Shown in pieces: positions 1 to 46,856 of a stretch of 46,856 nt of DNA; within the stretch, counting starts at the first letter, position 1, and each line of letters begins with the position of its first letter. The stretch comes from a phage: sequence record PZ379178.1; one strand, 5' to 3'. The position numbers were made by a program, and so were the translations under genes. The notes below the pieces were generated by a model, which searched no databases, was not told where the DNA came from, and was given only the letters and a program-made list of their open reading frames with translations.

Positions 1-390
1 CCGGCTGTTATCGCGATAGATGAGTGCTTAACTGGAGACACGATGATAACCACCGATTCAGGGATGATGAGGATTGATAGCGAAGACCTTATCAATCATA
101 AAATAAAATGCATAAACGAAAGCACTGGTGATTACTTCTATCATAAGCCAAAAAGAGTTTTTACTAATGGTGTAAGACATGTATCATCAATTAAATTAGA
201 AAGCGGAGAGGAAATAAAATGCACGAGTACACACAAACTTTATTCGAACGGCTGCTGGGTAGGAGCGGGAAAACTTCGTATTGGGATGAATCTGTCGCTA
301 GACGGCTCGCAGGACAAATTTACGAAAAAGCTCCTGCGTGCAAGTGTGGCTGTGGTGAAAAAGTTATGCCGCATTCAAGCAAGGGGTTAG
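1..390 (+). CDS. Helicase N-fragment (3-prime end, continues from window end) fused to split-intein N-half
   Basis: Frame-1 ORF open from nt 1 to stop 388-390; PAVIAIDE (helicase motif II) then Cys codon 25-27 starting intein block A CLTGDT and block B GEEIKCTSTH; joins in frame with ORF 46437..46856. Confidence 0.6.
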   Translation, partial: PAVIAIDECLTGDTMITTDSGMMRIDSEDLINHKIKCINESTGDYFYHKPKRVFTNGVRHVSSIKLESGEEIKCTSTHKLYSNGCWVGAGKLRIGMNLSLDGSQDKFTKKLLRASVAVVKKLCRIQARG

Positions 391-1073
391 GCGTACTTCT
401 TAAGAACCCTTTCGATTTCTATTTGGATTACAGAACGGGCCATCATAATTCAACCGTCAACCCATCAATGGAGGTTGATGACTTTTTACATCAAAACATT
501 CTTGCGGCAATGGCTGGTGATGGTTGCTTGATTAAAAATACAGAAAAAGGAACGCATAGGCTATCTTGGAATATGGGAAATAAGGAGCACGCACTAAGCA
601 AGGTTGAAAGGTTTGCAAAACTAAACCCTAGATACAGGGAGAAGAAAAACCCTGGATTTGGCGACAACTGGTTTTGCGTATCAACATCATGTACGAAAGT
701 TCTGGATTCATATGCTGATAAGTACGGAAATTCTAAGGATGGTTACGATATTGGAAAGATATGCAGAGAGCTTAATCCAGTTGGTTGGGCTGCTTACTTT
801 GGTGATGATGGTCATTGCACTGTAAGCTCAGGGAAGAGGGTTGTAGAAATCCACACCGAATCATTTAGCAGGCGTGAAGTTCAATCAGTAGTTGATGCGC
901 TAATAGCATTTATTGCTAATGACGGAGTTAAGGTTAGAAGCTATATTGGCGGCAAGAAAAAGAGAGAGCTTTACTCAGTATCAATAACAACGAGGTCGGC
1001 ACAAGATGAGTTTTTTAAGAGAATTAGTAAGCACATGGAAAATGGCGTGGAATACAAAATCAAGCAAAATTAA
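366..1073 (+). CDS. LAGLIDADG-family homing endonuclease, free-standing ORF between intein halves
   Basis: Frame-0 ORF 219..1073 with two LAGLIDADG-like motifs (LAAMAGDGCL and AAYFGDDGHC); start 366 is first ATG with GGTGA-like SD, 219 is an alternative; overlaps both intein-half ORFs in a different frame. Confidence 0.55.
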   Translation: MPHSSKGLGVLLKNPFDFYLDYRTGHHNSTVNPSMEVDDFLHQNILAAMAGDGCLIKNTEKGTHRLSWNMGNKEHALSKVERFAKLNPRYREKKNPGFGDNWFCVSTSCTKVLDSYADKYGNSKDGYDIGKICRELNPVGWAAYFGDDGHCTVSSGKRVVEIHTESFSRREVQSVVDALIAFIANDGVKVRSYIGGKKKRELYSVSITTRSAQDEFFKRISKHMENGVEYKIKQN

Positions 1074-2715
1074 AGACATCTCACCCATTGGCAAGGAACT
1101 TGTTTGGGATATAGAGATGCCTGAGCACCATAATTTCATTGCTGACGGGGTCGTGGCACATAATTGCCACATGGTGGACCATATGGATATCGTAGAAGCT
1201 GAAGAGAATGAGGAAACATTCGAGCAGATGAGCACGAAGAAGGGTGAGATGGTCTTTAAGGATGGTGTGAATACCGGGCTTCTTGGCACTGGTCGCGCGC
1301 AATACACGTTAATCATTACCGAAATGAAGCGTCGATGCAAGGAGAAGTACGGTCGCGAACTTCGTATCTTTGGGTTAACTGGTAGCCCGTACCGTAACAA
1401 CGACCACATTGTAGTTAGTAACCCAAATGTCCGTGGATTCTGGCGCAAAACTGTAATGCAAGTGCCAACCAGCTACCTTGTTGACTTGGGGTTTGTTGTT
1501 CCTACTGTCTACGGTGAAGTTGGTGATTTGGGCTACGACCTTAGTGAGTTCACTCCTGATGGAAGTGATGGGGTTAAGGACTTCAGCAAGAAAGAAATGG
1601 ATGCGATGGCTGCAAAGATTCACGAAAACCAAACGATGACACAAAAGATAATGGGATTTGCTGCTAAGTTTATGGAAACAAGGAATGCTGCATTGGTAAC
1701 TTGCGCTGGCAAACAGCATTGCGAGGAGGCGGCAGCCGCACTTCCAGAAGGTGTTACTTGGGCGATAGTTACCAACTCCACTGGTGAGAAGAAGCGTAGA
1801 GAGATACTTGAGAAGGCAGCCAACGGAGAATATAAGTTCATATTTCAGATTGGTTGCCTCACAACTGGCGTAAACTGCCCCCCGTGGGATACAAGCATTA
1901 TCCTGAGGAAGGTTGGTAGCATTACTCTACTCATTCAGTTGCTTGGTCGTGGTATGCGTATCCTTAAGAAGAAGCACAAAGAAGCTGGAATGGTAAAAGA
2001 TGACCATGTTGTTCTTGATTTTGCTGGAACGCTTGATGATATGGCTGAACTTTACTTCGACCCAATTATAGAAGAGGTACAAGACCAGAAATTTAGGTCA
2101 GCAAGAAAGCGTGGTGATGAGCCAAGAATCTGTCCGGTATGCTCTTATGGGAACTCTCCATTCGCCAGGCGCTGCAATAACGTAATTGACGGGAAGCGCT
2201 GTGAGCACTTCTTTCAGTTTAGACTGTGTGAAGATATAGCGGACCCACAGACCAAAGCTATCATCAAGAAAGGATGCGGTGAGAAGAATGATATTGCAGC
2301 TAAGAATTGCAGATGCTGTGGTGAGATGCTCATAGACCCGAATGCTAAGTTATCAGGAAAAATGTATCGTAAGGGGGACTGGTTGCGAGTTTATGACTTC
2401 AAGATTGGGTTAACAAAGAACCAGTCAGGGATTGTTGCTTCATATGAGGTAATGGCTCATAGTGGAGATAAGTTCCGAGCTTATGAAACATTCTTCCCGG
2501 AGTCAGACCATCGTGTTTGTTCTGTCAAATGGAAGGCGTTTTGCTCAACTCACATCGAGAACAGGACTGAGGCTTTTAGGATTGGCAGATTGCGTAATGC
2601 TAAAATGATTATGACAAATGCACATCTTTTCCGTGCGCCGCTAAGGATTACGCACCGCAAGAATCAGAAGTCGCAAGATATTATCGCCAACAAATCATTT
2701 ACGATGGAGGATTGA
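1006..2715 (+). CDS. Split-intein C-half fused to helicase C-terminal fragment (SF2 DExH helicase with Cys-rich tail)
   Basis: N-terminus KELVWDIEMPEHHNFIADGVVAHN then C-H (intein blocks F/G, HN ending at 1164, +1 Cys at 1165-1167); downstream QLLGRGMR (helicase motif VI) and CxxC clusters; alternative start ATG 1042. Confidence 0.6.
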   Translation: MSFLRELVSTWKMAWNTKSSKIKDISPIGKELVWDIEMPEHHNFIADGVVAHNCHMVDHMDIVEAEENEETFEQMSTKKGEMVFKDGVNTGLLGTGRAQYTLIITEMKRRCKEKYGRELRIFGLTGSPYRNNDHIVVSNPNVRGFWRKTVMQVPTSYLVDLGFVVPTVYGEVGDLGYDLSEFTPDGSDGVKDFSKKEMDAMAAKIHENQTMTQKIMGFAAKFMETRNAALVTCAGKQHCEEAAAALPEGVTWAIVTNSTGEKKRREILEKAANGEYKFIFQIGCLTTGVNCPPWDTSIILRKVGSITLLIQLLGRGMRILKKKHKEAGMVKDDHVVLDFAGTLDDMAELYFDPIIEEVQDQKFRSARKRGDEPRICPVCSYGNSPFARRCNNVIDGKRCEHFFQFRLCEDIADPQTKAIIKKGCGEKNDIAAKNCRCCGEMLIDPNAKLSGKMYRKGDWLRVYDFKIGLTKNQSGIVASYEVMAHSGDKFRAYETFFPESDHRVCSVKWKAFCSTHIENRTEAFRIGRLRNAKMIMTNAHLFRAPLRITHRKNQKSQDIIANKSFTMED

Positions 2716-2716
2716 T

Positions 2717-3136
2717 ATGAAAATCACAGACAAAGGTGATTACCTCGAGTTCTATGGCGGACCGGTGAAGTCATGCCCAAAGGAAGACGATGAACAAATC
2801 TTCTGCTCTGATTGGGTGAAATACAACTATCCGCAGATTGTTTACTGGCACACGATTAACGAAAATAAAAAGAGCATTGGTCAAGCAAGAAAAGACCAAG
2901 CCAAGGGGCTTCTCAAAGGTGTGTCAGACTGCTTATTTCTGATACCTGAGTCATTGCGTGGCGGTTATCCATTTGGCGCCATAGAGTTAAAGAGGGCTGG
3001 TAAAACGCAAGCAAGCCCAGTTAGCAATGAGCAAAAGTCATTCCTAAAAAGCGTAAGTGAATCAGGCGGTTTCGCAGCGGTGGCTTATGGAAGAGAGGGT
3101 TTTCTTGCGGCATTCGCAGAGATGATAAGAAAATAG
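2717..3136 (+). CDS. VRR-NUC-like PD-(D/E)XK nuclease
   Basis: 139 aa; GVSDCLFLIP ... FGAIELKRAGKTQ matches D...E-x-K nuclease core of VRR-NUC proteins; immediately follows helicase. Confidence 0.55.
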   Translation: MKITDKGDYLEFYGGPVKSCPKEDDEQIFCSDWVKYNYPQIVYWHTINENKKSIGQARKDQAKGLLKGVSDCLFLIPESLRGGYPFGAIELKRAGKTQASPVSNEQKSFLKSVSESGGFAAVAYGREGFLAAFAEMIRK

Positions 3137-6832: not shown

Positions 6833-6862
6833 GCGGGGGGCCTTTTGGCTCCCCTTTTTTTT
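6833..6862 (+). terminator. Rho-independent terminator
   Basis: GC-rich hairpin GGGGGCC...GGCTCCCC followed by T8. Confidence 0.6.
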
Positions 6863-6936
6863 GCTTATAATTTGCCACCGCCTAATGTATGATATTTGCA
6901 CTATGTATTGACAAATTAGGATTTAAAGGTGATCAC

Positions 6937-7152
6937 ATGAGGGAAGTAATTAACGCCGCCACGGCATCAACCGGCGGAGCCGCTGTAACTGGTGCCGCAA
7001 CTGGTCAAATGACTATAGCAATAATCAGCCTTGTGGCTCTTGTTGTTTTCGGGCTGTGGGGAGCATATTGGAAGTTTAAGGACAGTCAGGCAATCAGGAA
7101 GGCTCTAGAGTCGGGTGATTTAAAGACAGCTATCAATATTAGGAGTAAGTAA
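6937..7152 (+). CDS. Holin (putative)
   Basis: 72 aa with one strongly hydrophobic segment IAIISLVALVVFGLWGAYW and charged C-terminus; directly precedes endolysin; AAAGGTGA SD before ATG 6937. Confidence 0.5.
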   Translation: MREVINAATASTGGAAVTGAATGQMTIAIISLVALVVFGLWGAYWKFKDSQAIRKALESGDLKTAINIRSK

Positions 7153-7637
7153 TGAAGCAGAAGCTGGTAATTAGTGCAGCGACGGCTGTGGCAATATACA
7201 TCGCAGCGCCGATTATTGAGCTAGTAGAAGGTGTGGAATACAAGCCTTACATGGACATTGCAGGCATTCCTACGGTTTGTTCAGGTATCACTGGTCCTGA
7301 TGTGGTGTGGGGTAAAAAGTACAGTGCAAGGGAGTGCAGGAACTTACTGGAGAAACACATCCAGATTCATGGAAAGTATGTGCAGGATGCAGTAACTTAC
7401 CCAATCTCTCCACAGACAAGGGCGGCGTTAATCAGCTTTAGCTACAACGTTGGTGGCGCTGCAATGAGGAAGTCAACGGCAGTAAGGCTGATTAATCAGG
7501 GCAAGATTGAAGAGGGTTGTAATGCTCTCGCCTCCTGGAATAAAGCTCGAGTAAATGGCAAGCTAAAAGTTGTTAAAGGCCTCGTTAACAGGCGCAACGA
7601 GGAGATTAAATTATGCTTAAGTGGGGTGGGTAAATGA
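7152..7637 (+). CDS. SAR endolysin (GH24 lysozyme-like)
   Basis: N-terminal hydrophobic SAR-like segment then E-x8-D-x5-T catalytic triad (ELVEGVEYKPYMDIAGIPT). Confidence 0.7.
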   Translation: MKQKLVISAATAVAIYIAAPIIELVEGVEYKPYMDIAGIPTVCSGITGPDVVWGKKYSARECRNLLEKHIQIHGKYVQDAVTYPISPQTRAALISFSYNVGGAAMRKSTAVRLINQGKIEEGCNALASWNKARVNGKLKVVKGLVNRRNEEIKLCLSGVGK

Positions 7638-8020
7638 AGGCTGCGTTAATTGCTGCGGTAATTATACTTTCTGGTTGCTCGGCAACATCTGCGCTGACCG
7701 GGTTGATTGGTAGTAAGCCAGAGATTAGCGCTCAAGCAGGTGCGGAGAATAACAAGGTTGGAGTAGGGCTAACTAATAAGGTTGATTCAAGTTCCAGCGC
7801 AAAGGCTGAAGTGAAGAACTCTAAGGTTGACACTCTTGATAGTTCAAGCGGTAAAAAGACTTCTGATAACTCAATCAAGGCATCAACAATCACGGCTGAG
7901 AAGATTGAAATCACCAACAATGATTCGTCTGCAATCCCGTGGATTGGGAGTGGAATCATGTTTTGCGTCATCATCATTCTGCTCTTAATGATATTCAGGA
8001 AAAACAAAAAAGCCCCGTAA
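7634..8020 (+). CDS. Unimolecular spanin (lipoprotein with C-terminal TMD)
   Basis: Lipobox LSGC after signal peptide, Ser/Thr-rich middle, C-terminal TMD IMFCVIIILLLMIF; position after endolysin as in T1-type lysis cassettes. Confidence 0.6.
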   Translation: MKAALIAAVIILSGCSATSALTGLIGSKPEISAQAGAENNKVGVGLTNKVDSSSSAKAEVKNSKVDTLDSSSGKKTSDNSIKASTITAEKIEITNNDSSAIPWIGSGIMFCVIIILLLMIFRKNKKAP

Positions 8021-33874: not shown

Positions 33875-36800
33875 ATGGCACAAATGGTCAAAACAAATGC
33901 GGAGCTATGTGATATGGCGGAAGAAATTAAGATTTATGGAAGTAAGGGCGGACAGCCAAAGCAGCACCAACCTGTAGAGCAGCCTGATAACCTGATATCC
34001 GTAAACAAGGTTAAGGTTTTGCTAGCTGTTTCTGATGGTGAGGTTGATAGCTCATTCTCCCTAAAGGACCTTTACCTTGCTGACGTTCCTGTACAGAACC
34101 AGAATGGCACATACAACTACGAGGGTGTAACGGCAGAGTTTCGCCCTGGCACACAGAGTCAGGATTACATTGCCGGGCTAGAGGGTGCTAACTCGGAAGT
34201 GCAAGTGAACAGGGAGATTAAAAACTCAACTCCTTACATCATTGCTGTTAATAACACCCAGCTATCAGCGATTAGGGTTAAGCTGTTTTGGCCTCGTCTG
34301 ATTAATCAGGAAAGTAACGGAGATCTTAACGGTACCACTTGCGAGTATGCGATTGACCTGTCCGTTGATGGCGCTACATACACTGAGTACACGCGCGGAG
34401 TAGCTAATGGCAAGACAACTAGCGGGTACGACAGAAGTATCAGGGTTAACCTTCCTGCTGAGTTCTCGAGTGCGTTGGTGAGGGTTCGTAAGATCACGGC
34501 AGATTCAGAAAGTTCGACGCTGGTTAACGACATGCAAATTACGACCTATCAGGAAGTAATTGATGCTAAATTCCGCTACCCACTTACAGCGCTGGTTTAC
34601 GTTGAGTTCAGTTCTGACCTCTTCCCTAACGGAATCCCGACGATTTCAATCAAGAAGAAGTGGAAGTTGATTCGCGTTCCGACTAACTACAACCCAGAGA
34701 CAAGGACTTACAGCGGAACCTGGAACGGCACCTTTAAGATGGCGTATTCCAATAACCCGGCGTGGGTTCTTTACGACTTGGTGACGAATCAGCGTTACGG
34801 ACTTGACCAGCGAGAGCTTGGCATTACTATTGATAAGTGGGGTCTGTATGAGGCGGCGCAATTCTGTGACCAGATGGTTCCAGATGGTAAGGGTGGAGTT
34901 GAGCCGCGCTACCTGTGTGATGTTGTCATTCAGCAGAAAGTTGAAGCATATCAGGTAATCCGTGATATTTGCTCTATCTTCCGTGGGCTGACATTCTATG
35001 ACGGCGAGCAGATAGGGATTGTTGTCGATAAGCCGCGTCAACCATCGTACGTATTCACCAATGACAACGTTGTTGATGGATTGTTCAACCGTACATTTGG
35101 TAGCGATAAGTCACTTTACACGGTTGCCAACGTTCAGTTTGATGACGTTGAAAACTCATACCAACAGGATGTTGAGCCAGTATTCGAGTTAGAGGCAACA
35201 AGGCGTTTTGGTTACAACCCGGTCGACCTTACAGCTATTGGATGTACTCGCAGGAGTGAGGCAAACCGCCGCGGGCGCTGGTTATTAAAGACGAACATTC
35301 GCAGCGAGACTATTAGTTTCACTACTGGTCTGGAAGGTATGATTCCAATGATTGGTGAGGTTATTGCAGTTAATGACCAGGCATGGTCTAGCAACTACAC
35401 CCTTAACCTTTCTGGTCGTATCGAGTCAGTAAGTGGGTTGCAAGTTTTTGTGCCATTTAAGATTGATGCTACTGCTGGCGACAGGATTCTAATAAACAAG
35501 CCTGATGGAATGCCAGAGTACAGGACCATTGCATCTGTATCTGAAGATGGTATGACGCTGCAACTTAATACAGCGTTTAGCTTTACTCCTCAGCCTGACA
35601 CAGTATTTGCGATTGATAAGGAAAATCTTGCTCTTCAGCAATATGTTGTGACCGGTATTCAAAAAGCAGACAGCGATGGAGATGATGCGTTTGGTTACAC
35701 GATTACCGCAGTTGAGTACGACCCGAACAAATACGACGAGATTGATTACGGCGTAAACATTCAGGACAGGCCAACTTCAATCGTGGAGCCAGATACATTA
35801 CTGGCACCCGAGAATGTTCAGGTTAGCAGTTACAGTAAGGTTGTTCAGGGTTTATCAGTTGAGACAATGGTAATCACGTGGGACAAGGTTCAGTACGCGA
35901 AAACCTACACGGTCCAGTGGCGCAAGGAGAACGGAAACTGGATTAACGTGCCGCGCACAGCAAGCACAGAGGTTGATATTGAAGGTATCTATGCCGGAAT
36001 TTACCAGGTTCGCGTAAGGGCCGTTTCTGATACTGAAAACGTATCCGCATGGTCTGACATTGTTTCAGTAAGCCTCACAGGCAAGATTGGGACCCCTTCT
36101 TCACCTACAGTAATCACCGCTTCAGATGATGAAATATTCGGCATTAGGGTTAAGTGGGGATTTCCTGAAAACTCAGCCGATACGTCATACACTGAATTGC
36201 AGCAAGTAGCCGACAATGGTGATGGTACTTATACACCAGAGAATGCTAGCCTTCTGACTCTGGTGCCTTACCCGAGTTACGAGTACTGGCATACTACACT
36301 TCCTGCTGGAAAGGTCATCTGGTACAGGGCGCGACTGATTGACAAGATTGGTAACGTCTCACCATGGACTGATTTTGTAAGGGGTATGGCAAGCGATGAT
36401 GTGTCGTCAATCATTGGTGATATTAAGGTTGATATAGAAAACTCAGATGGGTTCAAGTATCTCCAACAGAATGCCATTGAGTCAAACGGAGCTATTCAGG
36501 CGCAAGCGGAATCAATAATTGAGAACGCCCTGGCTAATGATGGTGACGTGCGTAGAATGACGAAGGAAAACGGCAAGAGGAAGGCCGAATTTGTTCAGGC
36601 TGTGAATCTTATCGCCGATGAAGAAAGGGCTCGCGTAGAGGCTCTGACGCAGCTTAAGGCGCAGATTGATGATGAGATTGTAGCTTCATTGACAAGGATT
36701 GATACGGCGCTAGCGGAAGAGACGCAAGCAAGGACCACTGCGGACACTGCTTTATCTGCAAGGCTAGGTGATAATGAGGCTGCGTTAAATGAGAAGTTGG

Positions 36801-42229: not shown

Positions 42230-42252
42230 AGCCCCTTTCGGGGCTTTTTTTA
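42230..42252. terminator. Bidirectional terminator between SSB and tail fiber genes
   Basis: AGCCCC-TTTC-GGGGCT followed by T7; convergent gene ends 42219 and 42250. Confidence 0.65.
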
Positions 42253-44778
42253 TTGAAGCGCCATCCTTGAGTTGGTAAATATTAAAGCGTCTCTTTGGTT
42301 ATCGAACTCTACAACGAAGTAATCAGCAAGACTTAATACCATACCAGGTAGCCCATTAAGGTTGATATGCAGGTTTGCAGTGCCAGAGACTGAAGCCTGA
42401 GCAACTCCAAATGTGTGAACCCACTTACCGCCCTCAGTGAATACCTTCCCTAAAGATGCACTACCAAAAATACTGATAACACCATCAGCACCACCTTGAA
42501 TTCTGTTTGCAGAGATACCCCAAACATACCATTTGCCAGCGGTTATATTAAAGACACCATTTATCAATTCGTACTGAGCCGCACCACCCAATTCGTAGTA
42601 TCCAGATGATTGCGAGTGTATACCCCTTGTATCAGAACCTTCACTTGCCGACCCTGTTCCACCAAAGTTGTTCCCACCAGTACCAAAAGGCTTCCTGACT
42701 AAAACAGTTCCGGAATCAGGGTTAAAAACTCGACCTTTAGTAACATATCCTCTAACAGATAAGTCAGATGTACCCGTTATCTTGGCTGTCTGTGATACCA
42801 GTGACTCAACTATAACGTTTGATGTTGAAGAGCCATTCAGGTATGCATCCTTAGCAAAAATAATACTGTTTGAATCAAGAGAGAAACTTTGATGCCCGTC
42901 AGCGTTATCAAACCTGCAACCGTAAGTAATAAGGTTTGAGTTCGACAACTCAATGTTATTAATGTAGGAATGCTCAGCAAAGAAAACAGACGTATCGATG
43001 AGCTTCAAAACCCTTGGGAGTTCAGCTCCCTCACCTACGTTAATTGCCCCACCAGTTGCTATCGCTTCAAACCATACGTTAGACAATCCGCAAGGTGATG
43101 TTGGGCAATCTCCAGGTTTATTCTTTAACCTTATACCGCCGCCAGCAGAGGCCTCCATTATTGAATCCCTAATCCACCACCCACCAATTCCTCCAGCGCC
43201 AGGGTTCGTTGCGCTACTTGTGCTTGTCGCATCTAGCATTACTGAATATTGAGAGATTGTATCTGAGTGGTATCCGTATAAAGTGTCCGCTCCTATATGC
43301 ATTTCGTCATGAGCTTTTGCTCGATACCCGTAATTCGCATTTCTAATACTTACGTTTCTGTAGGTATTTCCAATGTTGCCAGCATTTTTCCTTATACCAA
43401 CATCCAGGTCATTGAAGTAAAGCCTATCCAATACAACCCTTCCAGCATAAGGGCCATCCGGGAATTGAAAGCCGTTATTACCTTGTATTGCAGTACCTGT
43501 AAACTGCAAATCCGATAAATGCTTTTGCCTCCAGTGCGGAACCGATAGCGTTGAGGTGAGTCCGGTTTCAAAAGGTTTAACACTTATTACGGTATTATAT
43601 CCAGAGCCTGATATGTTCCTGCCAGCAAAGGAGTAGTTATTACTCTCATAAGTTCCCGGGCTTATAACTACCGACCCGCCATCGCCAGCGGCTTCTATTG
43701 CTGAAGATATTGAGCCGCTATAGCTTGATGTGCTTTTTGAATCTGTATTTAAAATTGATGATAATTCGCTCTTTGAGTAAACATCAAGGTTGGTTCTTGC
43801 TTCTGCTTTATCTGCAACATCAGATAAATTCAATGATTTTTGAAAAGTCTCATTTTTTGAGTAAACATCAAGCAAGCCTCTTACTCGCTGGGCGCTAGCG
43901 CCGCCAACCTTACTTCCTGATGCGACATAAAGAGCCTCTCTTGAATAGTAAGTTTTGTTTGGTGCCGTGCCAGTCTGAGTTAAATCAATCAACCTGTACG
44001 TATTATCGGATCCGGTTGATGCTGACACTTGTATGTTCTTAACACCAGTAATCCCCCTTGATGACTTAACCTCAATCGCACAAAGCGTGCTATCGGAGTA
44101 GGTTATATTTATCACCTCTGGAGCGTTGATCATTGCTGACTTTTGGCATAGGTATCTAGCTCCTGATTTGAAATCAAACGTATTCCAGTCAAGTTCTGTC
44201 AACTGAGGTGTAAACGAGCCACCGATACCCATATTGGCAAGAGTTACCATTGTGCCAGCATCACCAGCACTATTAATTGCCTCAATAGTAGCATCTCTCG
44301 CTGATGTGGTTGTATCCCTTGCGCTAACGGCAGTAGCGGCGCTCTCTGCGGCAGCAATCTGGCTAGCTAAAGACTCGGCAGCCCCTGTTACTGATTGGTT
44401 TGCTAATTGCTCGAAGCGAGGCCAATCGAAATTATCTTGCCCGATAAATTGCAGCAAACTTTCAATAGAAGTCTCCTTTGACTGATAGTAACGCAGAGTC
44501 TCAGCAACATCCTGAGCTAAACCCTGAACGGTAATGCCATCGTGAGCAAGAATCGCGTAACCAGTTCCGGCAGGAACAGTTTCAGAATTAGGGTTGTAAA
44601 CATTAATCTGAGTGTCGCTGATGATTTCAGAGATGGTATAAATTTTAAGTGGACTGGTTTTAAAAATAATGGTTGCACCTACACGAATAAGTGTAAGTGG
44701 TGCTTTCCATGTTGTCCGGACGCCAGTAACCTCGCCATTTGCGGCTAGCGACGCTGTTCCTAAGTCATAAATTGCCAT
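42250..44778 (-). CDS. Tail fiber / tailspike-like protein
   Basis: About 842 aa; central region with repetitive Asn/Gly/Ser-rich beta-helix-like segments; start ATG 44778 preferred over GTG 44808. Confidence 0.6.
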   Translation of the reverse strand: MAIYDLGTASLAANGEVTGVRTTWKAPLTLIRVGATIIFKTSPLKIYTISEIISDTQINVYNPNSETVPAGTGYAILAHDGITVQGLAQDVAETLRYYQSKETSIESLLQFIGQDNFDWPRFEQLANQSVTGAAESLASQIAAAESAATAVSARDTTTSARDATIEAINSAGDAGTMVTLANMGIGGSFTPQLTELDWNTFDFKSGARYLCQKSAMINAPEVINITYSDSTLCAIEVKSSRGITGVKNIQVSASTGSDNTYRLIDLTQTGTAPNKTYYSREALYVASGSKVGGASAQRVRGLLDVYSKNETFQKSLNLSDVADKAEARTNLDVYSKSELSSILNTDSKSTSSYSGSISSAIEAAGDGGSVVISPGTYESNNYSFAGRNISGSGYNTVISVKPFETGLTSTLSVPHWRQKHLSDLQFTGTAIQGNNGFQFPDGPYAGRVVLDRLYFNDLDVGIRKNAGNIGNTYRNVSIRNANYGYRAKAHDEMHIGADTLYGYHSDTISQYSVMLDATSTSSATNPGAGGIGGWWIRDSIMEASAGGGIRLKNKPGDCPTSPCGLSNVWFEAIATGGAINVGEGAELPRVLKLIDTSVFFAEHSYINNIELSNSNLITYGCRFDNADGHQSFSLDSNSIIFAKDAYLNGSSTSNVIVESLVSQTAKITGTSDLSVRGYVTKGRVFNPDSGTVLVRKPFGTGGNNFGGTGSASEGSDTRGIHSQSSGYYELGGAAQYELINGVFNITAGKWYVWGISANRIQGGADGVISIFGSASLGKVFTEGGKWVHTFGVAQASVSGTANLHINLNGLPGMVLSLADYFVVEFDNQRDALIFTNSRMALQ

Positions 44779-44802
44779 TGTGTAAAGTCTCCATTTGTAA
44801 AG

Positions 44803-44819
44803 TAGCACTAATTGCTAAA
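44803..44819. promoter_or_regulatory. Isolated box copy TAGCACTAATTGCTAAA with ambiguous orientation
   Basis: Box overlaps tail fiber 5-prime region (start 44778, minus) and lies beside primase terminator hairpin 44853-44866; no downstream leader on plus strand. Confidence 0.35.
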
Positions 44820-44843: not shown

Positions 44844-44866
44844 TAAAAAAACCTCCCGAAGGAGGT
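44844..44866 (-). terminator. Rho-independent terminator after primase gene (minus strand)
   Basis: CCTCC-CGAA-GGAGG with A7 on plus strand (T-run on minus). Confidence 0.55.
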
Positions 44867-45792
44867 TAGTCTAGTAATTCGTTTGCCTTGTATATTCTCT
44901 TTCTTATGCCTGACTTGAAAAAATTACCATCATTTGGAATTACAATATCAAGATTGCGATCGTCAGCAACGGCAAGTAAATCAAAAGAGTTGCGAGTACA
45001 AGCGACGCGTAACTTGTAGTTCCTAAGCGCATAAGCAACCATTTCCATGTTGTAGCTGGAGTGGCAAACAAGCACGCAGCGATTTCCAGTAGCAAGATGA
45101 ACGCGAACACCATCAATCCAATTATCGACCAGATAAGCGTACTCATCATCTTTAAAGGTGCCAATAATAGAAACAGACTGGCGAGTATAATCTTTTGCAG
45201 CATAGCTAACATCTCCATCTTCATTGATAAACATTACATTGCACATATCATCTGATATGCCGTCACTATAAGCCATAAAGCACGGTACTGCGTGTATTAG
45301 TTCGCCTGATTTCGTCCTGCCAACATCAAAACCAAATTCGCTATAGATACCCTCGTATGTACTTAGCGGAGTTAATTCTACTCTTTCCGTCCTTTCCATT
45401 ATCTCTAAGCATCTTTCGTGATCAATCTTGGCGCCCATTTTGTATGGTGATGTACGAGATGCTCTTTTGTTTGCTTTTGATATAACCTCTACTGGAACGA
45501 GATTCAGCCAATCACCAAGCGTATCTATTGTTTCGCTATAACTCATTCCCGAGCATTTCATAACCCAGCCAACACCAGAATCATTTCCGCACTGGTTGCA
45601 TATTGCTGCGCCATTTCCCTTTTCCTGACCTAACTCATCAGTGAAGCGAAACCTATCCCTGCCAAAGCAGTAAGGGCACGGACCATGTTTCTTGCTGAGA
45701 TTCTCCTTTGTCCATCCAAGGTTCGATGAGTAGAATTCGCCCCACATTCCCTTCATTTTTGCTATCACTTCGCTCTTATCATGGTGACTCAT
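44866..45792 (-). CDS. DNA primase-like protein (zinc-binding domain)
   Basis: N-terminal CPYC-x17-CNQC zinc-ribbon; start 45792 with GGAGG SD; promoter box upstream (45844-45860). Confidence 0.5.
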   Translation of the reverse strand: MSHHDKSEVIAKMKGMWGEFYSSNLGWTKENLSKKHGPCPYCFGRDRFRFTDELGQEKGNGAAICNQCGNDSGVGWVMKCSGMSYSETIDTLGDWLNLVPVEVISKANKRASRTSPYKMGAKIDHERCLEIMERTERVELTPLSTYEGIYSEFGFDVGRTKSGELIHAVPCFMAYSDGISDDMCNVMFINEDGDVSYAAKDYTRQSVSIIGTFKDDEYAYLVDNWIDGVRVHLATGNRCVLVCHSSYNMEMVAYALRNYKLRVACTRNSFDLLAVADDRNLDIVIPNDGNFFKSGIRKRIYKANELLD

Positions 45793-45860
45793 AGTTACCT
45801 CCATAAACAATAAAGGCACTATACACAATGTATAGCGCCACTGTTTATCAATTCGTGCTA
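45793..45860 (-). promoter_or_regulatory. Box-hairpin-leader cassette (minus orientation)
   Basis: Reverse-complement box TAGCACGAATTGATAAA (45844-45860), palindrome CTATACATTGTGTATAG, GGAGG SD; precedes primase ATG 45792. Confidence 0.5.
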
Positions 45861-46340
45861 TTTCCCTTGCTCTTTATCTTTTCGTGCTGCTTCGTTAGCG
45901 GCCTTAATCTTGCGCCATGAGCGACACTCTGGTTTAGTTGCTAGCTCAGCCTCAGTAACAACACGCAGCATATGACGCTTCTTGCAACGTAGAGTTAGCG
46001 GTTTCCCGTTACCGTCGAATTGCAGATCTGGTCGGCAGAATGTAGCGCGAAAACCTTCTCCATTTCGCTTATAGTAGTTGTGCGACAACTGAGCGCCACG
46101 CGCAGAAATCATCCCGCGATCAAACCATTGCTCTACAGTCTGGTGAGATACATTTAACTGCTTGGCGATATTGGCCTTCGTGCCGTAGAAATCAAGAACC
46201 ATCTCCAGACGAGCTCGTAGCCCAGCCTTTACTTCATCTTTCAATACGTAGTAGCCTGACGGTCGTTTGCGCTGTTTCTTGTCTTGCGTGCGGATGGTTC
46301 CGTTATTGCCGTTGATAGTTCGCTTGTCAATTTCACACAT
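45858..46340 (-). CDS. HTH-type DNA-binding protein (putative regulator)
   Basis: 160 aa, basic; TKANIAKQLNVSHQTVEQW resembles helix-turn-helix. Confidence 0.45.
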   Translation of the reverse strand: MCEIDKRTINGNNGTIRTQDKKQRKRPSGYYVLKDEVKAGLRARLEMVLDFYGTKANIAKQLNVSHQTVEQWFDRGMISARGAQLSHNYYKRNGEGFRATFCRPDLQFDGNGKPLTLRCKKRHMLRVVTEAELATKPECRSWRKIKAANEAARKDKEQGK

Positions 46341-46436: not shown

Positions 46437-46856
46437 ATGCTTCCAGTAGAGCGCTTAGTGGCGAACTTTGATAAAGAGAAAATTAAACAGATTCAGAAAG
46501 ATTACCAGTTTGGAGACATAACGCCTTACGAATTCCAGTGCGTGACATTTGACGCAATCGGTAAGGCTATTGGCAAGTACGAAGCGCCATTCATCGCAGA
46601 CCTGTCGGTGTCTGCTGGTAAGACAATTATACTCGCCATGATTGGGAAACGAATGGAACAGCTTGGCCTTCCTTACATGGTCCTATCTCGCCAGTCAGAG
46701 ATTATCAGCCAGAACGCAGAGGAACTTCGTAATTTCGGCATCCGTAATAGCGTCTATTGCGCTGGCCTTAACGTTAAATCAGTTTACTACCCAACCATAG
46801 TGGCTAGCGAGGGTACGGCTGCCAACGGCTTATTTAAGGGGCTTGGTGACTATGTT
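46437..46856 (+). CDS. Helicase N-fragment, 5-prime part (runs off window end, continues at nt 1)
   Basis: ATG 46437 is 73 nt downstream of promoter box 46364; Walker A SVSAGKT; 140 complete codons to window end, in frame with nt 1 ORF. Confidence 0.6.
   Translation, partial: MLPVERLVANFDKEKIKQIQKDYQFGDITPYEFQCVTFDAIGKAIGKYEAPFIADLSVSAGKTIILAMIGKRMEQLGLPYMVLSRQSEIISQNAEELRNFGIRNSVYCAGLNVKSVYYPTIVASEGTAANGLFKGLGDYV

Follow-up and report, generated by a model that had tools for sequence, protein, structure and literature searches.

Introduction

Genes broken in two by a split intein and accompanied by free-standing endonuclease genes were described by Dassa et al. (2009; PMC2677866) as fractured genes, with gp41-1, gp41-8, NrdJ-1, IMPDH-1 and others as examples. 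Gosselin, Arsenault and Gogarten (bioRxiv 10.1101/2025.01.02.630785) reported inteins of actinobacteriophages whose endonuclease genes lie out of frame or antisense. Inteins were stated in a 2024 paper (PMC11162368) to be unreported in coliphages, and the paper on the Ymer genus of Pectobacterium phages makes no mention of an intein or an endonuclease. Here we describe a helicase gene in a coliphage genome of 46,856 nucleotides (nt) (sequence record PZ379178.1; this whole stretch of DNA is referred to as the window). The gene, which encodes an SF2 (DExH) helicase, is interrupted in the Walker B motif, at AIDE|CHMV, by an element of 1140 nt (25..1164, equal to 380 codons). The element is read as three overlapping open reading frames (ORFs), namely the N-extein joined to the N-terminal intein part (IntN), a LAGLIDADG endonuclease in the −1 frame, and the C-terminal intein part (IntC) joined to the C-extein. 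It is highly likely, with a probability that we put at about 0.85, that the helicase gene is a fractured gene with a naturally split intein and a separate, overlapping LAGLIDADG gene, for which trans-splicing and homing would be expected. No prior description of this intein and endonuclease family was found in the literature searched, the coverage of which was incomplete, and an earlier description elsewhere is possible.

Results

The helicase gene is read as three overlapping frames

The helicase ORF starts at ATG 46437 on the plus strand, runs to the end of the window and, the window being circularly permuted, continues from position 1 in the same phase. Joining the end to the start is justified by the genomes of Escherichia phage ES and phage AN_ECEAS, which are collinear across this junction with 0 indels over 3135 nt. 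The first 140 helicase codons (46437..46856, plus strand) thus belong to the N-extein; they give a weak ResIII match and are collinear with ES and AN_ECEAS. The last 8 codons of the N-extein (1..24, plus strand) encode PAVIAIDE and end in the D-E of Walker B (motif II). Immediately after them, in the same frame (frame 1), come the Cys codon at 25-27, LTGDT and the block B sequence GEEIKCTSTH, and the frame closes with a stop codon at 388-390. IntN (25..390, plus strand) therefore comprises 121 amino acids (aa) and the stop, with Cys1 at its beginning and TSTH in block B, and it gave a partial match to Pfam Intein_splicing. Its core extends to about 324 and its helical tail covers approximately 319-372.

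Downstream of IntN the helicase frame is closed by 10 stop codons between 388 and 987. It is open again from 988, contains an ATG at 1006, runs through VWDIEMPEHHNFIADGVVAHN|CH, with the HN codons ending at 1164, and continues to 2715. IntC (1006..1164, plus strand; 53 aa) consists of a helical head (approximately 1006-1053), block F VWDIEMPEHHNF and block G VVAHN, and the C-extein (1165..2715, plus strand; 516 aa and the stop) begins with the +1 Cys of DE|CH and carries Helicase_C as well as Cys-rich, zinc-ribbon-like segments. In the Pfam search, each of the two frame-1 pieces gave an intein-splicing fragment, and the 3' ORF matched Helicase_C. The coordinates and motifs that a first-pass annotation, made from the sequence alone, had given for the helicase frame, including the stop at 388-390, the reopening at 988 and the span of 1140 nt, were all correct.

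Between the two intein parts lies the third ORF. Frame 3 has 8 stop codons in the first 194 nt, is open over 195-1070 and has its first ATG at 219, so that the endonuclease gene (219..1073, plus strand; 284 aa) is shifted by −1 with respect to the helicase frame. Its start codon straddles the beginning of the block B Cys codon (aaA TGc), and a Shine-Dalgarno (SD)-like sequence, GGAGAGG (205..211, plus strand), lies 7 nt upstream of this ATG, inside the block B codons of IntN. As a consequence of this layout there are two dual-coding overlaps on the plus strand. In the 5' overlap (219..390, 172 nt) frame 1 encodes the C-terminal part of IntN and frame 3 the N-terminus of the endonuclease; in the 3' overlap (1006..1073, 68 nt) frame 3 encodes the C-terminus of the endonuclease and frame 1 the head of IntC. 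The IntC ORF start is preceded by the Shine-Dalgarno sequence GAGG (992..995, plus strand) at a distance of 10 nt.

Removal of 25..1164 in silico produced a protein of 664 aa with gapless 92% identity to the uninterrupted helicase of phage P818. No second copy of the helicase was found in the window. A single ORF running from the N-extein through the intein to the C-extein, as in a canonical contiguous intein, was found neither in the window nor in the other lineages, in which this region contains 7-14 stops.

The layout is shared by divergent phages

The same three frames are present in ES and AN_ECEAS. These two do not differ from each other in this region, and over 3135 nt they show 109 differences from the window. 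When the endonuclease was used as a query in tblastn, 7 of 50,697 phage records were matched, and these were ES, AN_ECEAS and five Pectobacterium phages of the Ymer genus (Ymer, Amona, Abuela, Koroua and Sabo). In the latter the three overlapping ORFs recur with their relative frames unchanged, at an identity to the window of 42% for the endonuclease and 55-56% for IntN. In a collection of 5.8 billion proteins, 20 clusters homologous to the endonuclease were found, all of 167-294 aa, and in none of the 20 was the endonuclease homologue embedded in a longer intein-containing protein. Metagenomic phage contigs (L006-L017, L019 and L020) showed the same three-ORF layout wherever the contig was long enough. 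An exhaustive HMMER search with IntN gave a similar picture from the other side: the closest 25 or so cluster representatives (at 50% identity) were nearly all of 236-313 aa and ended right after IntN, and at least 24 clusters at 50% identity consist of N-terminal ORFs that end just after IntN. Among the more distant IntN relatives, L019 and L020 also carry a −1-frame LAGLIDADG ORF and an IntC ORF on their contigs.

Ten lineages were compared in detail, with endonuclease identities of 39-86%. The insertion point, D-E|C-H/Q in helicase motif II, is identical in all ten, and the element is 1140-1158 nt long, a multiple of 3, in every lineage measured.

These comparisons bear on a second explanation that the first-pass annotation had offered for the locus, namely a once-contiguous intein with two compensating indels. 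In a fuller form of it, a canonical intein with an in-frame LAGLIDADG domain was broken by such indels or by assembly errors, and the helicase would be a pseudogene or the frames artefacts. It could be argued for this that IntN and IntC share a frame, that the element length is always a multiple of 3, and that the closest contiguous relatives, the DnaX inteins, are single ORFs. The multiple-of-3 length would be enforced anyway, because every base of the element is covered by at least one ORF. Against it, an identical frame layout recurs in independently assembled genomes and in lineages with an endonuclease identity as low as 39%, comprising ES and AN_ECEAS (without any indel relative to the window), the Pectobacterium phages and the metagenomic contigs, and the helicase frame contains stops across the endonuclease region in every lineage. 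A sequencing or assembly error was considered separately and rejected, given the absence of indels over the 3135 nt of ES and AN_ECEAS and the frames shared by many independent metagenome assemblies. Together with the evidence on start codons, selection and endonuclease fold presented below, this makes the broken-intein explanation extremely improbable, and it was rejected as a description of the present state of the locus. An ancient origin by frameshift may have occurred; it would not change the present nature of the locus.

The annotation of these ORFs in public records is a separate matter. In ES the homologous ORFs (L001, 1081-4215) are annotated as 'minor tail protein', 'hypothetical protein' and 'putative single-stranded DNA binding protein'. 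The annotation of AN_ECEAS (L002) omits the endonuclease ORF, and gene callers start the endonuclease at the equivalent of ATG 366. The current GenBank labels for the three ORFs are misleading.

Start signals are conserved and each frame is under selection

The fractured-gene reading implies three separately translated ORFs, and the start regions of the endonuclease and IntC ORFs were compared in the ten aligned lineages. In every one of them an ATG straddles the block B Cys codon (xxA TGC), the endonuclease frame being closed only a few codons before this ATG, and a GGAG-type SD is located 7-8 nt upstream of it. The residue that precedes the block B Cys varies (K, T or R), yet the third base of its codon is always A. 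Likewise, the IntC ORF has a conserved Met (MSFLRELV...TW; ATG 1006 in the window) with an upstream SD in all ten. The 5' overlap is 166-187 nt long and the 3' overlap 68-95 nt, two of the latter values being obtained with an earlier in-frame ATG. As judged from sequence comparison, these data support the view that the endonuclease gene and the IntC ORF are separately translated, each with a conserved start codon and SD. In the GC-rich distant lineage L020 (3535-3548), TTG replaces the ATG of the endonuclease, with GGAG 7 nt upstream.

The starts chosen by GenBank and by gene callers were examined as candidates and rejected. For IntC, the Met encoded by ATG 1042 is not conserved. For the endonuclease, the first-pass annotation had given the start as 219 or 366. 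Of the 10 lineages, 4 have no Met at the position of ATG 366, and the codons of the invariant CKCGCG motif (339..356, plus strand) lie upstream of 366; ATG 366 was rejected for these two reasons, and from the sequence alignments ATG 219 is the conserved start.

Substitution rates at the three codon positions were computed among closely related pairs. In the regions used by one frame, the rates at positions 1, 2 and 3 were 0.24, 0.17 and 0.43 for IntN only (helicase frame), 0.23, 0.17 and 0.52 for the endonuclease only (endonuclease frame), and 0.24, 0.10 and 0.60 for the non-overlapping part of IntC (helicase frame). These values fit purifying selection on the non-overlapping parts, each in its own frame. 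In the 5' overlap the rates in the helicase frame were 0.07, 0.18 and 0.17, and in the 3' overlap those in the endonuclease frame were 0.13, 0.05 and 0.14. It can be seen that the freedom of the third position is lost in both overlaps, as expected when both frames are constrained. The exteins were compared with those of ES: the N-extein showed 31 synonymous codon differences and 1 non-synonymous one, and the C-extein 56 and 12 respectively. Since the exteins differ almost only synonymously, the helicase is under selection in intein-carrying phages. Conserved start codons and SD motifs, and purifying selection on IntN, IntC, the endonuclease and both exteins, all argue against a gene broken by indels.

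An alternative way of expressing the three frames is programmed ribosomal frameshifting, with a −1 shift near 267-363 and a +1 shift near 1006-1073, by which one polypeptide would be made and a cis-splicing intein with an embedded endonuclease produced. In all lineages the offset of the endonuclease frame from the helicase frame is indeed exactly −1, and slippery-like heptamers are present in frame in the window, G GGA AAA at 267-273 and G AAA AAG at 324-330 and 357-363. These heptamers are restricted to the window and its nearest relatives, however, and in 5 of the 10 lineages the whole overlap is free of slippery heptamers. For the return +1 shift no recoding signal was identified, and no Rfam element was found in 1-1400. 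In addition, the endonuclease frame is open upstream as far as the conserved ATG and SD and closed a few codons before them, and IntC has a conserved ATG and SD of its own; frameshifting needs neither an upstream opening nor a closure of this kind. We therefore regard frameshifting as a very improbable basis for expression of the locus. A minor −1 frameshift product, in which the N-extein, IntN and the endonuclease are fused, may be made in the window phage and its nearest relatives.

Signals that could separate the ORFs at the transcript level were also looked for within the locus. Promoter-like sites occurred only at chance level and terminator-like sites only slightly above it, and up to E = 1 no Rfam match to a group I or group II intron or other RNA element was obtained in 1-1400.

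Together, IntN and IntC match a complete splicing domain

When the IntN core and IntC were fused, the product scored 48.6 bits on Pfam Intein_splicing (cut-off 35.8), and the fused halves aligned end to end with the structure of the Spl DnaX mini-intein (7cfv) at 6e-17. An AlphaFold2 model of the complete IntN part with the complete IntC part had a predicted local distance difference test (pLDDT) value of 91.9 and a predicted template modelling score of 0.83. With this model, Foldseek gave target-normalised TM-scores of up to 0.87 to mini-inteins, and its matches included the split inteins gp41-1, NrdJ-1 and Npu DnaE. A word-index protein search with the artificial fusion of IntN and IntC gave no matches. 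The sequence and fold features of a class-1 intein were all found: Cys1, the T-x-x-H of block B (TSTH), the F/G region VWDIEMPEHHNF...VVAHN|C, and a complete HINT profile and fold. Hence IntN and IntC together are a complete class-1 HINT splicing domain. Residues C1, T67, H70, D156, H173, N174 and the +1 Cys (C175) are invariant across the ten lineages.

In the model of the fusion, the IntN tail (aa 99-116) and the IntC head (aa 1-16) form two confident helices at the split site (pLDDT approximately 79-94). Both helices are encoded within the dual-coding overlaps. According to the model, this helix pair may serve as a clasp by which the split halves associate.

The same helices bear on the possibility that the two helicase halves form a non-covalent two-subunit enzyme, in which splicing has been lost and the intein halves are a mere dimerisation module; the predicted helix pair could be a pure association device. 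A precedent for a split phage gene whose product is assembled without splicing is Aeh1 NrdA (PMC3045599). Nevertheless, every residue of the splicing chemistry is invariant across ten divergent lineages, and binding alone would not maintain these residues, so a binding-only role is disfavoured. Moreover, the break lies inside the DE|CH of Walker B, where a covalent backbone is likely to matter. A two-subunit helicase of this kind thus seems unlikely, and trans-splicing by the split intein is preferred.

The endonuclease resembles intron-encoded enzymes

The 219..1073 ORF scored 30.3 bits on Pfam LAGLIDADG_2 (PF03161; cut-off 25), in agreement with the two LAGLIDADG-like motifs noted in the first pass; with the score of the fused intein halves, profile comparison bore out both assignments. 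The first motif, ILAAMAGDGCL (495..530, plus strand), contains the invariant G100-D101-G102 and the second, WAAYFGDDGH (786..815, plus strand), the invariant G195-D196-D197-G198, so that an acidic residue is conserved in each of the two LAGLIDADG helices. Over 14 sequences, M1, C41, C43, C45, D101, D196 and D197, and also H75, were invariant.

The AlphaFold2 model of the endonuclease had a pLDDT of 84, with nearly every core block above 85. Model and Foldseek search showed the alpha-beta-beta-alpha-beta-beta-alpha double-domain fold of LAGLIDADG enzymes. The top Foldseek matches were I-WcaI and I-SceI (E 8e-10 to 1e-8, target-normalised TM-score 0.70), and the intein-embedded PI-SceI, PI-PfuI and TliVMA ranked below them. 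A search of PDB sequences with the endonuclease gave no meaningful match. A fold nearest to the intron-type I-SceI and I-WcaI, and not to the intein-embedded PI-SceI and PI-PfuI, is a further point against an in-frame intein domain disrupted by indels.

The invariant C-x-C-x-C...H set (C41, C43, C45 and H75, the His75 codon being at 441-443) is located in an N-terminal extension of about 85 aa, for which no Pfam match was found. The set is probably a zinc knuckle. The codons of its CKCGCG part encode, in frame 1, the conserved IntN tail RASVAVV.

The element has a history of its own

Relative to ES, the element differs at 3 of 1140 positions (0.26%) and the adjoining N-extein at 7.4%. The block of near-identity has its edge within 22 nt of the insertion site on this side and reaches about 860 nt into the C-extein. 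This sequence pattern is suggestive of what homing with one-sided co-conversion would leave. In more distant comparisons, the amino acid identity to the window was 77-83% in the intein parts, 48% in the N-extein and 53% in the C-extein for L008, and 69-72%, 36% and 46% respectively for L009; for L006 the values were 78-85%, 95% and 79%. From these identities, the history of the element is decoupled from that of its host gene.

The insertion site itself is shared with other inteins. DnaX inteins (proteins P0046, P0050, P0054 and P0071) are inserted at ...IIDE|CHML..., to be compared with AIDE|CHMV in the phage helicase. The resemblance suggests a past jump of an intein between unrelated P-loop genes, DnaX and the helicase, by way of the shared Walker B motif.

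Genome and neighbouring genes

The window is the circularly permuted genome of a T1-like coliphage (Drexlerviridae, Braunvirinae), with a median identity to ES of approximately 94% over 1-kb windows. The relationship is strongly mosaic, in that blocks of 79-88% identity are interspersed with stretches, up to about 1 kb long, without a single difference (6852-7923 and 34682-35655 are examples), and segments elsewhere have no ES match at all. Directly downstream of the helicase C-extein is a gene for a VRR-NUC nuclease (2717-3136, plus strand). Upstream, and divergent, are genes on the minus strand for a Cro/YdaS-like DNA-binding protein (45858-46340) and a primase zinc-ribbon protein (44866-45828), followed by an 852-aa ORF without Pfam match (42250-44808, minus strand). 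In phage P818, a gene for an HNH homing endonuclease is located between the primase and cro-like genes.

Discussion

The reading of the helicase gene as a fractured gene with a split intein and a free-standing endonuclease gene, which was one of the two readings of the first-pass annotation, is supported by the conserved layout, by the conserved starts and SD motifs and by selection. A scheme for its expression can be proposed as follows. The three ORFs are probably carried on one transcript. ORF 1 would yield the N-extein fused to IntN. ORF 2, translated from its own SD and ATG inside block B of IntN, would yield a LAGLIDADG endonuclease that is monomeric, resembles I-SceI and carries a CxCxC...H knuckle near its N-terminus, and ORF 3, whose separate SD and ATG lie within the final part of ORF 2, would yield IntC fused to the C-extein. 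IntN and IntC would associate, possibly aided by the helices of the IntN tail and the IntC head, and complete the class-1 HINT fold, and protein trans-splicing would then ligate the halves to a 664-aa helicase with the junction AIDE-CHMV. The endonuclease would cut intein-less helicase alleles in the conserved GATGAG|TGCCA region during co-infection, after which the whole three-ORF element would be copied into the cut allele, that is, homing would take place. We infer trans-splicing, the activity and target of the endonuclease and the role of the helix clasp from sequence and models.

Several observations weigh against this reading or parts of it. The two helices at the split site were predicted in a model of a single-chain fusion that was built on an alignment of only 10 sequences, and the first 20 residues of the endonuclease were modelled with low confidence (pLDDT 52-54). 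The IntC ORF of L019 (2754-2871) has no ATG at the usual position, the candidate starts being ATG 2763 and TTG 2784 or 2859. Some of the conservation in the overlaps, such as that of the Met-His at the endonuclease start, is due in part to the conserved block B codons. Concerning mobility, other near-identical blocks of about 1 kb are shared by the window and ES and the genomes are mosaic, and for this reason recent homing is suggested but unproven. Finally, no experimental report of splicing or of DNA cleavage for this intein and endonuclease family was found in the literature searched.

One may go further and see in the locus a three-ORF intein class in its own right, ancient and mobile to this day, in which an I-SceI-type LAGLIDADG gene has closely co-evolved with the split intein, its ribosome-binding site and start being placed inside block B, and in which the overlaps encode the helix clasp. 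We hold this only tentatively, as a possible but rather doubtful extension. If it were true, the locus could be a living intermediate in the process by which LAGLIDADG genes become, or cease to be, in-frame domains of inteins, and a new natural pair of split-intein parts would be available, with its association module built in and open to testing in E. coli phages.

The fractured-gene principle was defined from ocean metagenome reads, and it is seen here in plaque-forming phages of E. coli and Pectobacterium. Because the layout occurs in culturable phages, trans-splicing, homing and the fitness cost of splitting an essential gene can be tested by ordinary phage genetics. LAGLIDADG endonucleases are normally fused in frame in inteins, and the locus therefore bears on how fusions of inteins and endonucleases arise. 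As a case of overlapping genes, the 172-nt stretch that codes for parts of two proteins is unusually clear, and its conservation is deep. Furthermore, the family of natural split inteins to which the element belongs is uncharacterised and has many diverged members, with a possible use in orthogonal protein ligation.

A comparison with known systems places the locus as follows. Among inteins of solved structure, the Spl DnaX mini-intein (7cfv) is most closely related to the splicing domain; like IntN and IntC it is class-1, and it occupies a Walker B IDE|CHM site. The cyanobacterial DnaX intein differs in being contiguous, in residing in a cellular clamp-loader gene (that for the tau/gamma subunit of DNA polymerase III) and in having a different or degenerate middle, and the DnaX inteins are only about 35-39% identical to IntN of the window. 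I-SceI and I-WcaI resemble the endonuclease in having two LAGLIDADG motifs in one chain and belonging to LAGLIDADG_2. They are products of mitochondrial group I introns with an identity of 17-18%; unlike them, the endonuclease of the window has the CxCxC...H N-terminal extension, and its gene is located inside a split intein, not in an intron.

With the inteins described by Gosselin, Arsenault and Gogarten the locus shares an endonuclease frame that differs from the frame of the splicing domain, for which an origin by invasion of an intein by a free-standing endonuclease gene was proposed, and it shares with them the fact of being missed or mis-annotated by pipelines. The endonuclease ORFs in that work are nested and were not presented as splitting the inteins, whereas the intein frame of the window contains stops and the intein is therefore split. 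In addition, the LAGLIDADG genes reported there run antisense, and the out-of-frame case on the same strand is EndoVII-like; the window has a LAGLIDADG gene on the same strand in the −1 frame.

The fractured genes of Dassa et al., to which the first-pass annotation had rightly pointed with its reference to environmental sequences, share the most with the present locus. In both, a split intein divides the gene of a conserved phage DNA-metabolism enzyme into two parts on the same strand, an endonuclease gene is present at the canonical endonuclease insertion point, and this gene overlaps at its 3' end with the beginning of the IntC ORF (by 6-69 bp there and by 68 nt here). The differences are also clear. 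The endonucleases of that set are GIY-YIG or Vsr-like, and the word LAGLIDADG does not occur in PMC2677866; the enzyme of the window is a LAGLIDADG protein. A non-coding spacer of 27-51 nt precedes the endonuclease gene in that set, whereas the gene in the window starts 172 nt inside IntN, in block B. An SF2 DExH helicase is not among the eight host-enzyme types of that set, and the set is known only from ocean metagenome reads, in contrast to the cultured coliphages and Pectobacterium phages that carry the layout described here. What is most unusual about the locus is the depth of its dual coding and the presence of an I-SceI-like LAGLIDADG gene within a split intein. Taken together, the layout is a fractured-gene organisation with differences, which is not categorically new but is conserved across many lineages.

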